Below are positions 22,541-24,615 of a DNA stretch of 64,000 nucleotides, in pieces. The notes beneath the pieces are model-generated. The model was not told the origin of the DNA. It ran no database searches and saw only the letters and a list, made by a program, of their open reading frames with translations. Source of the DNA: Escherichia coli (GTDB taxonomy: Bacteria > Pseudomonadota > Gammaproteobacteria > Enterobacterales > Enterobacteriaceae). Positions within the stretch are counted from its first letter, which is position 1, and each line of letters opens with the position of its first letter. The translations under genes were made by a program, and so were the position numbers. Location of the stretch: assembly GCA_902499925.1 (NCBI GenBank), contig GCA_902499925.1_4130.1; one strand, 5' to 3'.

Positions 22541-23086
22541 TTATAGACAGTTAAGTACTATGTCATCAAAAGTACTACTGTCAATGTTGTATTCATATAA
22601 AAATTTAAAATGTGATCCATAACGCATCATCAGATTAAACTCTTCTTCAGTATTAAATTTGTAATCATGAAGAGTTTCAAGGGTACATGTTAAACCTAAA
22701 AACTCAATAATTTCTGATGTTACATCATTTCCTGAATTGAAGTATTTAACCCAAACACATTTTCCTTGTGGGTTGAATTTTCTATATTCTCCTTCTAGTT
22801 CTCCATTGACGATATGTGCTTTCGCACTGATTAGATTATTACTATAACGCTCTTCGTAGTAGTTCCCATAACGAGCTTTAAGAATTGTAGGCTTCTTGGT
22901 TGGGAATAACTTAATGGAAGTTAATTCAAAACCGCACTGCAACTCTTTGATGTACGAAATACATCCCTTTTCTTTAATCACAACAAAACCAGTAAAATTC
23001 TCTTGGTCTTGGTTCTGATTGTCTGAATCAACAAATTCTAGTGTTTTATAAGTGACGCTTTTAGATTTTTTAATAAATGACATCAT
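22541..23086 (-). CDS. hypothetical protein with MORN/YwqK-like repeats
   Basis: Start moved to ATG 23086 (AGGA 5 nt upstream; the track start would fall at the promoter); NGELEGEYRKFNPQGKCVWVKYFNSGN resembles MORN-type repeats. Confidence 0.4.
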   Translation of the reverse strand: MMSFIKKSKSVTYKTLEFVDSDNQNQDQENFTGFVVIKEKGCISYIKELQCGFELTSIKLFPTKKPTILKARYGNYYEERYSNNLISAKAHIVNGELEGEYRKFNPQGKCVWVKYFNSGNDVTSEIIEFLGLTCTLETLHDYKFNTEEEFNLMMRYGSHFKFLYEYNIDSSTFDDIVLNCL

Positions 23087-23144
23087 TATTCCTATGGAAA
23101 CATCAATGACTGTACATGGCGTTGACTTCATCAACACCAGTCGA

Positions 23145-23173
23145 ATTATACACGCTTCGCATGTCTAATTCAA
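23145..23173 (-). promoter_or_regulatory. sigma70-like promoter (TTGAAT-17-TATAAT)
   Basis: -10 at 23145-23150, -35 at 23168-23173, upstream of gene 22541..23086. Confidence 0.6.
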
Positions 23174-23704
23174 CGAAAGTACTATGATTTGTTTTAATTA
23201 ATATTGACGGGGTTTGCTTGAGCATATTTCATCCCCCCGCAGGGGAAAGAACAAAAAAAGTTTGACGCTGGTGGCCTTCACATAGTTCATATCACGAATT
23301 CTCTTACGAGGCGAAAGCGGGTTGCTCTGTTTCTCTCTATCGCGGTTCTTGTAGCAACGGTCGTCGGTCTTAAACATCCCGACACATAATACAAATACCA
23401 TATGACCAGTACTTGTATTTGATTTCACGAATTTTGGACGCAACTATATTGTATAAATTACGACCGCAAATTTCTCATGAAATCTCCCTTAGATAATTGG
23501 TAAGGTGCGATCCTTATATGTCTATCGAGGAACTCTCTTTATCCTATTGGAGTTCTTTATACAGCCGCATTGCCGTGAGTGGTTCAAACTATGCCATCAT
23601 CTAACGGGTTTCATTTGCTGTTCGTACTGAAAGGACTACTCATCTACCCTCTACTTTTCGAGTGGATTAGGCTTTAATCATTTCCATATGGAACCTTTCA
23701 GGAT
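23174..23704 (-). ncRNA. candidate structured non-coding RNA or decayed gene (non-coding island)
   Basis: About 530 bp with no convincing ORF, GC about 40-45% versus about 30% in the flanks, bounded by terminator 23705-23735 and promoter 23145-23173; several local hairpins (TAAGG-n6-CCTTA at 23502-23517, GAACTC-n14-GAGTTC at 23530-23555, palindrome TTCCATATGGAA at 23682-23693, CCCC-n-GGGG around 23233-23245). Confidence 0.3.
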
Positions 23705-23735
23705 TAAAAAAGGCGACAACATATTCTGCTGTCAC
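23705..23735 (-). terminator. rho-independent terminator
   Basis: GGUGACA-GCAGAAUAUGU-UGUCGCC then UUUUUU, after 23767..24615. Confidence 0.7.
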
Positions 23736-23740
23736 CTTAC

Positions 23741-23768
23741 ATTATATCATAAACTTATGGTATGTCTC
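23741..23768 (-). promoter_or_regulatory. possible promoter (GAGACA-16-TGaTATAAT) abutting a terminator hairpin
   Basis: -10 at 23741-23746; -35 overlaps the stop codon of 23767..24615; the predicted start falls at the first bases of the 23712-23735 hairpin. Confidence 0.4.
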
Positions 23769-24615
23769 AGTTGTATTCTGTTTTTTCAGTGAAATTAGTT
23801 AAGATATCTGCACTTAAGCTTCTCATAACCTCAATCTTACTTGGCATGAATCTGTGCTTGTTTTTTACATACAACTCGTCATCTTCAATGAAAGATGTGA
23901 ACATGAATACCATATCTTCACGTGGGATTGAGAGAATATTACAGTTTTCATTTTCAGCAACAGGGGAATCATTGTAGTACTTAGAGAATGCAGTACTTTG
24001 ACGACCGATTATGATAGAATTACGGATTAGAAAATTACTACAGTACTGAAAATCTTTGTAGTACTTGTCAAGGATATATGGCATTATCGCTTCTTTCACT
24101 TCTTCATATCCATTGGTACTATCAATTTCAGTACAATAATCTTCTCGGTCTTTATTCCCTCGATGATTATCAAACTCGTACTCAAAGAATAAATTTTCAT
24201 TTAATGAATTATTTGAACCAACTGATCCACTATAGTATGATTTTCTATCATTCATTCGATCATCGGGGCATGATGCATACATAGAAATGTCATGTGTTGA
24301 CGTACCGATATAAATTTTCTTAGTAATGTGATTGTACGCGATGTAATCATAATCTTGTACTCCAGTGAGCATTAACTGGAACATCAATTCATCAGGAACA
24401 TCAATCAACGGGTACTCAAACTTCGAATATCTACTACGACAGAAATTCTTTTCAAATGCTCGATATGCGATGAAATCTTTTAGGTTTGTAATAGATTCAT
24501 GCTCATGTGTATTACTGGTGCGTACATTGACATTAGTAGACGAGCAATACCCTTCAGATTCTTCTGCGTAGTCATAATAACCCTTACTGTAGTCAACGAT
24601 TAGATAAAGTTTCAT
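23767..24615 (-). CDS. hypothetical protein
   Basis: 282-aa ORF; GGAG RBS; terminator downstream. Confidence 0.65.
   Translation of the reverse strand: MKLYLIVDYSKGYYDYAEESEGYCSSTNVNVRTSNTHEHESITNLKDFIAYRAFEKNFCRSRYSKFEYPLIDVPDELMFQLMLTGVQDYDYIAYNHITKKIYIGTSTHDISMYASCPDDRMNDRKSYYSGSVGSNNSLNENLFFEYEFDNHRGNKDREDYCTEIDSTNGYEEVKEAIMPYILDKYYKDFQYCSNFLIRNSIIIGRQSTAFSKYYNDSPVAENENCNILSIPREDMVFMFTSFIEDDELYVKNKHRFMPSKIEVMRSLSADILTNFTEKTEYN

Follow-up and report, generated by a model that had tools for sequence, protein, structure and literature searches.

The minus strand of positions 23768-23201 in the window (the whole stretch of phage DNA that was analysed, 64,000 nucleotides) is best explained as an autonomous gene that encodes a large structured non-coding RNA, independently transcribed and acting in trans. 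We put the probability of this reading at about 0.6, with both the expression and the action of the RNA inferred. The RNA is a member of a previously undescribed family of about 500 nt, found clade-wide in giant enterobacterial phages and in a few bacterial islands. Comparison of homologues establishes a fold of the minus strand only, consisting of at least 16 conserved helices in two domains, with four well-supported long-range or pseudoknot pairings (P1/P4, PK4, PK2 and the 7-bp K1). The headline of the original prediction, a structured RNA or phage ncRNA, receives strong support from covariation, strand asymmetry and the conserved upstream promoter; the four paralogues per genome, the many phage genera and the bacterial islands go beyond it.

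Large intricate RNAs of unknown function are rare, and past cases have been ribozymes, riboswitch-like machines and self-assembling cages. The family described here sits in cultivable E. coli phages under therapy development (121Q, PBECO4, G17 and phAPEC6) and is exchanged between phages and bacterial islands. Its study may shed light on a step of jumbo-phage biology that is still unknown, for example how replication is initiated, how the host is taken over or how conflicts with satellites and defence islands play out.

A conserved non-coding cassette and its distribution

Only short ORFs are present between the ORFs 22541..23137(-) and 23767..24615(-), both of them intact, distinct genes for which orthologues are annotated on either side. 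Positions 23138-23766 of the window are non-coding, with a GC content of about 40% vs about 35% in the flanks, and have a terminator and a promoter on either side. The 81-aa ORF 23198..23443(-) is interrupted by stops at the matching position in the copy of Salmonella phage Munch and in homologues L011 and L012, and the longest ORF differs in strand and frame among 30 homologues. The claim that the stretch is non-coding is thus confirmed, no ORF being kept across the 30 homologues, and a coding or pseudogene origin was rejected on the same grounds. The GC content of 23174-23734 is 40.3%, against a window mean of 33.6% and values of 35.5% and 34.8% in the 2-kb flanks, and ranks at the 96th percentile of 561-nt windows; the elevation, originally given as 40-45 vs 30%, is real but smaller than stated. 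The stretch is also the best-conserved 500 nt within its 7-kb neighbourhood. The cassette is 95.9% identical to that of 121Q and the flanking ORFs 81.4% and 84.8%, a difference which argues for selection on the cassette.

The source phage is an Asteriusvirus (121Q/PBECO4 group) with a 350-kb genome and four paralogues of the RNA, none of the others lying within the 64-kb window according to blastn and nhmmer. About 80 sequences of the family were collected. Phage 121Q carries four diverged copies (about 70% identity) at 90, 193, 247 and 327 kb, which precede unrelated genes, one of them running opposite to its neighbours, and 3-5 copies each were found in jumbo phages of Salmonella, Klebsiella, Erwinia, Yersinia, Serratia, Cronobacter, Pectobacterium and Xanthomonas. 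Synteny across genera holds for each paralogue. Small islands integrated in E. coli and Serratia also carry intact cassettes, beside unrelated genes; a search of the plasmid collection gave no cassette match.

The same cassette anatomy is seen across many phage genera, in the order extended -10 promoter, RNA of about 480 nt, box A with U-run, GC hairpin and box A'. In the window its elements are as follows.

23201..23768 (-): whole cassette; a 35-homologue nhmmer profile matches 23769-23152(-) with E=1.4e-139
23741..23768 (-): own promoter, -35-like GAGACA (23768-23763) and extended -10 TGATATAAT (23749-23741), from the signal scan
23706..23738 (-): the upstream gene's intrinsic terminator, a 12-bp stem and U-run, placed at 23738-23710 by the signal scan
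23253..23271 (-): box A CCAGCGUCAAAC (23271-60), then U7 (23259-53)
23228..23251 (-): GC hairpin UUCUUUCCCC-UGC-GGGGGGAUGAA
23201..23215 (-): box A' AAACCCCGUCAAUAU, repeating the core of box A in direct orientation
23145..23173 (-): next-gene promoter, TTGAAT-17-TATAAT, from the signal scan, outside the cassette

The terminator, the next-gene promoter and the inward promoter that had been proposed were all recovered by the signal scan, the last at 23770/23768-23741 with a TG extension. A TGnTAYAMT promoter lies upstream in 28/31 homologues, and the extended -10 is the general promoter type of this phage (in the window, 18 on the coding strand vs 2 on the opposite one). Transcription from the cassette's own extended -10 promoter would be carried out by the host sigma-70 RNA polymerase. 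The start of the RNA, near 23734, is inferred and not measured. The terminator of the upstream gene, annotated as such in G17 and Munch and with compensatory stem changes in Munch, is overlapped by the RNA promoter and start site, so that the RNA would start within the terminator stem. With a start about 7 nt past the -10, transcripts would not include the base of the 5' arm and, by inference, should escape that terminator.

A terminator made of a hairpin and a U-run follows box A in 21/30 homologues (helix 20). Unlike most copies, the window copy has no terminator hairpin after box A and its 3' end is therefore undefined, which weakens the best reading. A short form with its 3' end at box A/U-run is probable: the RNA would end at or near this point (about 480 nt) or, alternatively, extend past the GC hairpin as far as box A' (about 535 nt). 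Minus-strand expression is inferred, as no transcript has been observed for any member, and this absence of expression data also counts against the best reading; in the literature, no transcriptome was found for any phage carrying the family. The only transcriptome for the wider clade is that of a distant relative, the Pseudomonas jumbo phage PA5oct, in which four unexplained ncRNAs of 236-619 nt were detected by RNA-seq, two of them amounting to 2-5% of phage reads (PMC7318152). The nhmmer search of PA5oct, limited to 6-25 kb (ncRNA001 and ncRNA002, not ncRNA003 or ncRNA004), yielded no homologue.

A minus-strand fold with covarying helices and pseudoknots

From its 5' end, the fold comprises the following elements.

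23627..23701 (-): P1, CUGAAAGG (23701-23694) : CCUUUCAG (23634-23627), supported by covariation; its 3' strand CCUUUCAG is the loop of hairpin P4, which forms a pseudoknot. For helices 1-4, recorded under P1, both sides change in 7/8, 6/6, 3/3 and 2/3 pairs, and hold-out pairing is 87%, 75%, 100% and 100%
23693-23682 (-): P2, TTCCATATGGAA, enclosed by P1
23662-60 : 23651-49 (-): P3, enclosed by P1
23624..23639 (-): P4, GUA (23639-37) : UAC (23626-24), with a UGA..GA motif on its flanks; fully paired (100%) across 30 sequences, the middle pair being UA, AU or CG
23561..23621 (-): P5, 23621-17 : 23565-61; 100% paired, 3/5 pairs covary
23607-04 : 23576-73 (-): P5a, CCGU : ACGG, inside P5, with an optional inserted domain
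23530..23555 (-): P6, GAACUC/GAGUUC; both sides change in 6/6 pairs, and a position shows as many as four pair types
23518..23570 (-): PK4, AUG (23570-68) : CAU (23520-18), long-range and crossing P5; 100% paired, also in the hold-out, G-C and A-U alternating at one pair (19 vs 11)
23491..23544 (-): PK3, tentative, P6 loop GGAU (23544-41) : AUCU (23494-91)
23501..23516 (-): P7, UAAG/CUUA, supported by covariation; 98% paired, 2/4 pairs covary
23484..23492 (-): single-stranded motif CUAAGGGAG with an invariant UAAGGGA core

Towards the 3' end, the fold continues.

23421..23484 (-): P8, 23484-81 : 23424-21, closing an optional peripheral domain that is missing from several homologues
23388..23419 (-): P9, a 12-bp hairpin (23419-08 : 23399-388), supported by covariation; both sides change in 11/12 pairs
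23287..23405 (-): K1, P9 loop UCAUAU (23405-00) : AUAUGA (23292-87), a loop-to-3'-strand pairing of 6-7 bp
23362..23384 (-): P10, UGUCGG/CCGACG, 6 bp in the window copy
23321..23358 (-): PK2, a pseudoknot, GUUGC (23358-54) : GCAAC (23325-21, within the P12 loop); 100% paired, also in the hold-out, 3/5 pairs covary
23293..23344 (-): P11, 23344-40 : 23297-93, enclosing P12 and P13; 100% paired, 4/5 pairs covary
23337-33 : 23317-13 (-): P12, inside the nearly invariant GAUAGAGAGAAAC..ACCCGCUUUCG; 100% paired
23310-08 : 23303-01 (-): P13, with a GUAA loop; 4/4 pairs covary

In the alignment of 30 homologues, the 97 proposed pairs were 94.6% paired vs 35-42% when partners were slid, double compensatory changes were observed in 72 of them, and none of 500 shuffles attained any of the pairing or covariation measures. 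The helices were picked on the same alignment that gave these main statistics, a circularity mitigated by the hold-out test, in which eight sequences unused in the derivation had 90.4% of cells paired vs 36-41% when slid. A second set that included island and variant copies gave 94.9% pairing for the 3' domain. Since G-U cells (239) outnumber A-C cells (32), pairing drops to 87% on the other strand. The covariation check on related phages that had been suggested was therefore met by helices that covary, and the four hairpins listed originally correspond to conserved elements, namely P7 (TAAGG..CCTTA), P6, P2 and the C-run/G-run hairpin of the 3' module. The single-sequence folding energy is unremarkable (z = -1.8 for the minus strand and -0.7 for the plus strand), a point against the best reading.

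The K1 pairing is 99% paired with 5/7 pairs covarying in the 30-sequence set, and 7/7 pairs covary in a 25-sequence set that includes island and variant copies; about ten distinct complementary sequence pairs were observed. In P10, three pairs were tested across homologues (23384-82 : 23364-62, 99% paired), while the 6-bp extension in the window copy (23384-79 : 23367-62) was read from its sequence. PK3 was 90% paired in the derivation alignment and only 48% in the hold-out sequences, and it was downgraded to tentative because of this failure. Three homologues carry a CCG-UUCG-CGG tetraloop hairpin in place of the inserted domain of P5, a substitution that confirms P5a. P13 has a GNRA loop in some copies and an inserted hairpin in others, and exchanges of domains like these are characteristic of folded RNAs. 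Invariance is seen in several single-stranded motifs: UAAGGGA (positions 250-256 of the first sequence) does not change in the 30-sequence alignment, the flanking G being 70-90% conserved, and a variant class keeps the CUAAGGGAG motif as AAAGGGAG.

Comparison with known RNA families

No match was obtained in the whole 64-kb window with the 4227 models of Rfam 15 at gathering thresholds, among them GOLLD, ROOL, OLE, HEARO, raiA, RNase P, 6S, tmRNA, group I/II introns and self-cleaving ribozymes. At E<=10, no match in window positions 22900-24000 overlapped the RNA core, and at E<=5 the 12 homologue loci gave scattered small-RNA and miRNA noise, none of it shared. The Rfam/Infernal scan that had been recommended thus gave no known family. 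ARAGORN found no tRNA or tmRNA gene in the window, consistent with the absence of a tRNA noted originally, and no description of the RNA was found in the literature on ncRNAs of this phage clade. A group I intron interrupts a host gene and has guide sequences that pair with the exons and a P3-P9 core whose P7 binds G. It was rejected, as there is no Intron_gpI match and the flanking ORFs are complete (P7/G-site was not inspected by hand). A hammerhead ribozyme has an invariant core, CUGANGA ... GAAA, and a cleavage site after stem I/III. It was considered because of CAGAUGAG..CGAA around P4, and rejected because the core positions vary (CAGAUGA, CAGUUGA, ACAAUGA; CGAA, CGUU, CGCA); no Rfam hammerhead model matched.

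As far as sequence can tell, the structural and context criteria for a large 'ornate' stand-alone ncRNA are met (more than 400 nt, covarying helices and pseudoknots, conserved unpaired positions, no fixed downstream gene), its accumulation in cells being inferred; this is a descriptive class and not a homology family. GOLLD (RF01998) and ROOL (RF03087) are large ornate RNAs of bacteria and phages that form RNA-only cages by cryo-EM (PMC12286853). The jumbo-phage RNA resembles them in its length of several hundred nt, its many helices and pseudoknots, its strongly conserved unpaired nucleotides, its phage or prophage association as a stand-alone gene and its unknown function. On the other hand, cmscan detected no sequence or structure match to either; the jumbo-phage RNA belongs to lytic jumbo phages of Enterobacteria and Xanthomonas, whereas GOLLD and ROOL come from Lactobacillales or rumen samples; each genome carries 3-5 paralogues of it instead of one, and it is not beside tRNA genes and has a repeat-hairpin-repeat 3' module. 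By analogy with the action proposed for GOLLD and ROOL, the folded RNA may act in trans as a stable particle, either protein-bound, self-assembled or as a catalyst.

The phi29 pRNA is also a phage-encoded structural RNA with its own promoter, and its function needs a covarying loop-loop pairing; in the same way, the loop pairing K1 varies in sequence between paralogues yet remains complementary, although it may be purely intramolecular. The pRNA differs in being a single-copy RNA of 174 nt for the phi29-type packaging motor, whereas the phages studied here have a T4-type terminase, and no similarity between both RNAs was found.

The 3' module and the alternative readings

The cores of box A and box A' were identical in 79/79 sequences in which both were found, in four variants (CGTCA, CGAAG, CGACA and CGCCG), and the two boxes flank about 60-110 bp inside the cassette (46 bp in the window copy). 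In the 348-kb 121Q genome, the hairpin motif GGGGGGA[TA]G is present once at each of the four RNA loci and nowhere else, and in one Serratia copy the outer stem of the GC hairpin carries a double compensatory change. A pair of Serratia copies with near-identical RNA cores differs in the boxes and hairpin without any compensating core change, and no partner complementary to box A/box A' was found in the RNA core. This concerted change of the repeats, which have a nearly palindromic hairpin between them, is unexplained by intramolecular folding, looks more like that of a protein or DNA-level site and weighs against the best reading. For a trans-acting RNA, the box A-hairpin-box A' segment may serve a sequence-specific partner as a site of recognition or processing. 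The box motif was rejected as a general phage promoter element, the genome not being enriched in it and the G6AUG hairpin being found only at the four loci.

Because of this DNA-like repeat-hairpin-repeat module, the replication or packaging cis element suggested in the original prediction is not excluded. The main rival to a trans-acting RNA is a replication-origin cassette, in which a promoter-driven RNA primes or activates DNA replication, like T4 oriF/oriG or ColE1 RNA II. The module would be the site of an initiation protein, or box A of the RNA would anneal to the template strand at box A', since in a direct repeat the RNA copy of the first repeat can pair with the template strand of the second. 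The four dispersed copies would then be four origins, and an infecting jumbo phage would amplify the islands that bear the cassette. T4 origins consist of a promoter and downstream elements, and T4 replicates and packages plasmids bearing them. We consider this explanation unlikely, although several indirect observations fit it: the dispersed copies (3-5 per genome, at the four 121Q positions given above), whose number is unusual for a trans-acting phage RNA; the joint change of the boxes and the divergence of boxes and hairpin in the Serratia copies; the confinement of the G6AUG motif to RNA loci; the T4-type replisome of the phage, which includes RNase H, UvsW-like and UvsY genes; and the E. 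coli island, in which no replication gene was recognisable. The cassette also resembles the origins of T4, several per T4-type genome, and ColE1 in having a promoter and a downstream region; ColE1 RNA II is about 550 nt long and depends on its folding and a G-run/C-run interaction, and the cassette has a G6/C4 hairpin after the RNA.

However, an elaborate tertiary fold with invariant unpaired nucleotides goes far beyond the needs of a primer, and neither ColE1 RNA II nor the T4 oriF/oriG RNAs have a conserved pseudoknotted fold of this kind. The G-U usage indicates selection on RNA and not on duplex DNA, and in most copies an intrinsic terminator separates the RNA from the hairpin and box A'. 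Furthermore, no conserved AT-rich unwinding element was seen at the cassette, no origin activity has been demonstrated, and cumulative GC skew shows no feature at the RNA loci, though skew follows gene orientation here and is thus uninformative on origins. It is slightly more doubtful still that the cassette is a new origin type of T4-like jumbo phages, in which an ornate, pseudoknotted RNA and a co-evolving repeat-hairpin-repeat set the starting point of replication and which chromosomal islands exploit. If the origin reading were true, lytic giant phages would amplify and perhaps package the islands of E. coli and Serratia, and these would be their minimal satellites.

An anti-defence or conflict RNA, a special case of the trans-acting reading, would be a decoy or sponge for an immune sensor or nuclease of the host, with island copies that sense the phage RNA or interfere with it. 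The movement of the cassette between jumbo phages and integrated islands points this way, as do the candidate defence system PDC-M45 (DuOB/DUF488) on the E. coli island and the two Serratia islands, which have unrelated recombinases (22% identity) and a near-identical RNA core. The idea is purely contextual, however, and we find it improbable: no defence system is consistently adjacent, and no protein partner common to phage and islands was found, the only domain match (DUF4326) being unrelated to the cassette.

A selfish or mobile RNA, intact or as a relic (a group I/II intron without an ORF, an IStron or a miniature transposable element), with the box A/box A' repeat as target-site duplication, is very improbable. 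It would account for the multiple copies per genome, the occurrence in islands and the short direct repeat around the terminator-hairpin segment, but the paralogues are strongly diverged and syntenic across genera, which indicates ancient duplications and not active mobility. The repeats bracket an internal segment and not the whole cassette, no flanking gene is interrupted, and no intron or ribozyme model matched even at E<=10. The relic readings put forward originally (a decayed gene or an intron relic) find no support, as the stretch is conserved above the flanking genes, keeps no frame and matches no intron model.

Little more can be said for a 5' leader that regulates the downstream gene 22541..23137(-) in cis, as a riboswitch or attenuator, a reading which we hold to be marginally weaker. 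The RNA does lie upstream of this gene on the same strand, and its window copy has no terminator hairpin, but the gene has its own promoter (23173-23145), and known leaders are far smaller than this RNA, which is about 480 nt long and contains several pseudoknots. The upstream promoters, the terminators that end most copies, the unrelated neighbours of the paralogues (one of which is antisense to them) and the island copies argue instead for a stand-alone gene.

Finally, a decayed protein gene or chance hairpins in AT-rich DNA can be dismissed as having almost no chance, since the stretch is conserved beyond real genes, has no conserved frame and shows compensatory substitutions, even though GenBank records draw up to five 'hypothetical protein' ORFs on it; these are spurious, and the annotation of dozens of GenBank genomes is corrected by placing the RNA there.

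An unannotated, well-conserved gap in a jumbo coliphage genome

The locus occupies a gap of 629 nt between two ORFs (23767..24615 and 22541..23137), and the surrounding genes all lie on the minus strand. The GC content of segment 23174-23734 was 40.3% (96th percentile), compared with a window mean of 33.6% and about 35% in the flanks, indicating that the GC elevation of the original prediction is genuine, although milder than the figure put forward. The terminator and the two promoters that had been read from the sequence were all recovered by pattern scan:

23738-23710, minus strand, terminator
ending at 23741, minus strand, promoter with a TG-extended -10, directed into the gap
23173-23145, minus strand, promoter of the next gene

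No tRNA or tmRNA was detected in the gap, in agreement with the earlier failure to find a cloverleaf, and no Rfam family was matched with either curated or permissive thresholds. The 81-aa ORF noted within the gap did not hold up, as it was disrupted in the other homologues examined, among which no reading frame was conserved.

The window belongs to a jumbo coliphage of ~350 kb, an Asteriusvirus of the 121Q/PBECO4 type, with 99% identity to phage EC.P1. The syntenic gap is without annotation in the carefully annotated genomes of G17 and of the Salmonella phage Munch. In the comparison to 121Q, the cassette (promoter, RNA and 3′ module) showed 95.9% identity, versus 81.4% and 84.8% for the flanking ORFs, and was the best-conserved stretch within 7 kb. 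BLAST revealed four to five matching places in each genome. Whole-genome comparison of 121Q located four copies (90.3, 192.7, 247.5 and 326.7 kb), all in one orientation and with a mutual identity of ~70-73% over ~480 nt; the four are in annotation gaps, three co-oriented with their neighbour genes and one opposite. The window contains a single copy.

In many deposited genomes, 1-5 "hypothetical proteins" are annotated over the RNA cassettes; one of them, 121Q gp516 (NC_025447 247799-247954), is encoded on the strand opposite paralogue c4 and overlaps it. Such ORFs are very probably spurious. Another 121Q region of ~2 kb without annotated genes (NC_025447 135194-137161, outside the window) does not belong to this RNA family.

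Covariation and architecture of the RNA

The most conserved block of the RNA, used as an exact pattern to scan IMG/VR, yielded 43 loci, of which 34 were homologues at 68-77% identity. Their alignment revealed long invariant blocks between indel-rich segments, with obvious compensatory changes. The structure was derived by testing every pair of alignment columns for stacking and covariation, and was then scored by counting. In 30 sequences, the 97 pairs of its 20 helices were 94.6% paired, as compared with 35-42% after sliding the 3′ partners by 1-3 columns; both-sided changes were observed in 72 of these pairs, and none of 500 shuffles attained any of five measures. Since the helices had been chosen on that very alignment, the test was repeated with sequences found later. 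In this hold-out of eight full-length sequences (62-90% identity to any training sequence), pairing was 90.4% versus 36-41% when slid, in further support of the candidate structured RNA of the original prediction. The 3′ domain was also aligned for 25 sequences, island and variant copies among them; pairing was 94.9%, and all seven K1 pairs covaried. The PK3 loop pairing failed the hold-out test and is retained as tentative only. G-U cells exceeded A-C cells (239 vs 32), which assigns the structure to the minus strand. Folding energies of single sequences were unexceptional (z = -1.8 and -0.7), a common finding for pseudoknotted RNAs.

Elements of the RNA on the minus strand (P, helices; PK and K, long-range or loop pairings)
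P1, 23701-694 : 23634-627, 5′ domain; formed by a 5′ strand and the P4 loop, P4 being a short hairpin
P2, 5′ domain, enclosed by P1; palindrome TTCCATATGGAA
P3, 5′ domain, enclosed by P1; conserved loop GAAAAGUA
P5, 5′ domain; encloses P5a and an optional domain
P6, 5′ domain; GAACTC..GAGTTC
P7, 5′ domain; TAAGG..CCTTA
PK4, 5′ domain; P5 interior with the P6-P7 joiner
CUAAGGGAG, 5′ domain, after P7 and PK4; UAAGGGA core invariant
P8, closes an optional peripheral domain missing in several homologues
P9, 3′ domain; 12-bp hairpin whose loop forms K1
P10, 3′ domain, after P9
P11, 3′ domain; encloses P12 and P13
PK2, 3′ domain; GUUGC with the P12 loop
P13, 3′ domain; GUAA cap in the window copy, an inserted hairpin in others
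K1, P9 loop with the strand immediately 3′ of P11

Helices P6, P7 and P2 coincide with two hairpins and a palindrome already picked out from the sequence alone. A UUCG tetraloop substitutes for the optional domain of P5 in three homologues, and K1 occurs in about ten distinct complementary versions across the family. A peripheral module, (G)UACAAUAUAGAUCCGUCCAAAAUU, was observed as an optional insert at two sites of the RNA, inside P8 and atop P13 (for instance, window 23470-23430 and 121Q c4, L007:47467-48046); it has a CGUC motif in common with boxes A and A′ of the 3′ module.

Transcription signals and the 3′ module

A TGnTAYAMT sequence was found upstream of 28 of 31 copies. The extended -10 TGnTATAAT lies predominantly on the coding strand, with 18 occurrences vs 2 on the opposite one in the window and 85 vs 16 in 121Q (loci L003-L009), which is consistent with a large number of phage promoters used by the host polymerase. 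As the cassette RNA carries this general promoter type, its transcription by the host sigma-70 polymerase is inferred; it would occur early, with a putative product of ~480-535 nt. The -10 of the window paralogue is located just 5′ of the terminator of the preceding gene (both within 23706-23749, minus strand), placing the inferred start, ~7 nt downstream, within the 5′ arm of the terminator hairpin. This promoter-in-terminator layout, with a compensated stem, was also found in Munch and in other genera. Read-through from the upstream gene would halt at the hairpin (23738-23710), and transcripts from the internal promoter, missing the base of the stem, would elongate past it; one hairpin may stop the former yet spare the latter. 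A hairpin plus U-run terminator of typical form lies directly 3′ of the conserved box A in 21 of 30 copies, and the window copy has the U-run alone left at that site.

23271-23260, minus strand, box A, followed by the U-run
GC-rich hairpin UUCAUUCCCC-UGC-GGGGGGAUGAA, 3′ of box A and the terminator
23215-23201, minus strand, box A′, direct repeat of the box A core

In 121Q, the G6AUG motif is confined to the four RNA loci, with one occurrence at each. The cores of box A and box A′ agreed in each of the 79 sequences in which both were found, in four versions (CGTCA in 72, CGAAG in 5, CGACA in 1 and CGCCG in 1). Two Serratia copies (loci L055 and L056) have almost the same RNA core but different versions of both boxes, and their hairpin stems differ by a double compensatory change; comparison of these two copies revealed no core change compensating for the box differences. 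Direct repeats that co-evolve in this way cannot pair mutually; the two alternatives are that a sequence-specific partner recognises the pair of boxes, or that the RNA copied from one box anneals to the template DNA strand at the other. The co-evolution is not accounted for by folding within the RNA, and mainly for this reason the hypothesis of a replication origin is still open.

Distribution and possible roles

Cultured phages with the cassette (62-71 records) all belong to the RaK2/121Q/GAP32/CBB/XacN1 super-group, with hosts in Escherichia, Salmonella, Klebsiella, Erwinia, Yersinia, Serratia, Cronobacter, Pectobacterium and Xanthomonas. The metagenome pattern matches were homologues in 43 of 43 cases. 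In a variant class from metagenome contigs (L070, L073, L086, L088, L089 and L092), the 3′ domain is retained along with the GC hairpin and both boxes, which read CGAAG or CGCCG, and the 5′ half is quite different. This class stems from uncultured relatives, with capsid and portal regions that match 121Q at 55-78% translated identity. Two of the four RNA-seq "lncRNAs" published for the distantly related jumbo phage PA5oct (PMC7318152) fall in MK797984 6000-25000, where the profile of the RNA family gave no match.

Unexpectedly, bacterial chromosomes also carried the cassette, which was present in 2 of the 5,426 complete E. coli genomes and in two Serratia genomes. Plasmids gave no match.

L100:15950-26400, 10.5-kb island of E. 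coli LR-29-1 (NZ_AP027515) between ffs and ybaA; complete cassette at L100:19900-20550
L056:3700-4270, minus strand, cassette in an island of the Serratia fonticola GTA-SR07 chromosome
L055:5300-5960, plus strand, cassette in an island of a Serratia sp. 2723 contig

The LR-29-1 island encodes an IS3-split tyrosine integrase, a resolvase/invertase, several unknowns and the PADLOC candidate defence system PDC-M45 (DuOB, DUF488, DUF4326/mSLOG), and no replication or packaging gene was recognised in its 10.5 kb. The Serratia cassettes adjoin large serine recombinases with a mutual identity of only 22%, and the L056 copy adjoins a pair of identical rof genes next to tilS, an arrangement suggestive of att-site duplication at the edge of the island. 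No proteins were common to islands and phage except for an unrelated DUF4326 domain. About 400 nt 3′ of the LR-29-1 cassette (L100:20960-21035) there are three GATC-containing repeats resembling TTATCGATCGTT, which recall the iterons of plasmid and phage origins; phage copies are without them.

These results show that the cassette is a conserved, compactly folded structure at the RNA level, present in several diverged copies and provided with its own promoter-like and terminator-like signals. We favour, with a probability of about 0.6, a structural RNA that would act in trans as a folded particle, on the basis of its tertiary complexity, invariant unpaired nucleotides, natural domain swaps and unrelated neighbour genes, which are the signature of RNAs working as folded objects. 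Whether such an RNA would be a protein-bound scaffold, an RNA-only assembly, a ribozyme or an immune decoy cannot be chosen from the data. An RNA-based origin cassette, the main rival, accounts better for the dispersed copies, the co-evolving boxes and the islands devoid of replication genes, and agrees with the T4 precedent; it remains doubtful, leaving unexplained why a primer should need so elaborate a fold and why the terminator usually stands ahead of the GC hairpin. It is unlikely that the locus, with its unrelated neighbours and no conserved frame, is a cis-leader of the downstream gene, a mobile element or a pseudogene.

The trans-acting RNA favoured here matched nothing in Rfam 15, and the searchable literature yielded no description of it; large catalogues of candidate viral RNA structures may hold it as an anonymous entry. 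It is filed as a new class, outside any known family, of the large ornate RNAs already recognised from phages and bacteria.

Several copies (for example, L002:3872-3990, minus strand; L009:27230-27340; L026; L040), not including that of the window, carry further conserved hairpins just 3′ of box A′, with (G)AACGNAGUGA loops and, in many of them, AACGAAAATTCTTTGACAT. These extra hairpins recall the promoter/stem-loop cassettes that are repeated in T4-type phages.
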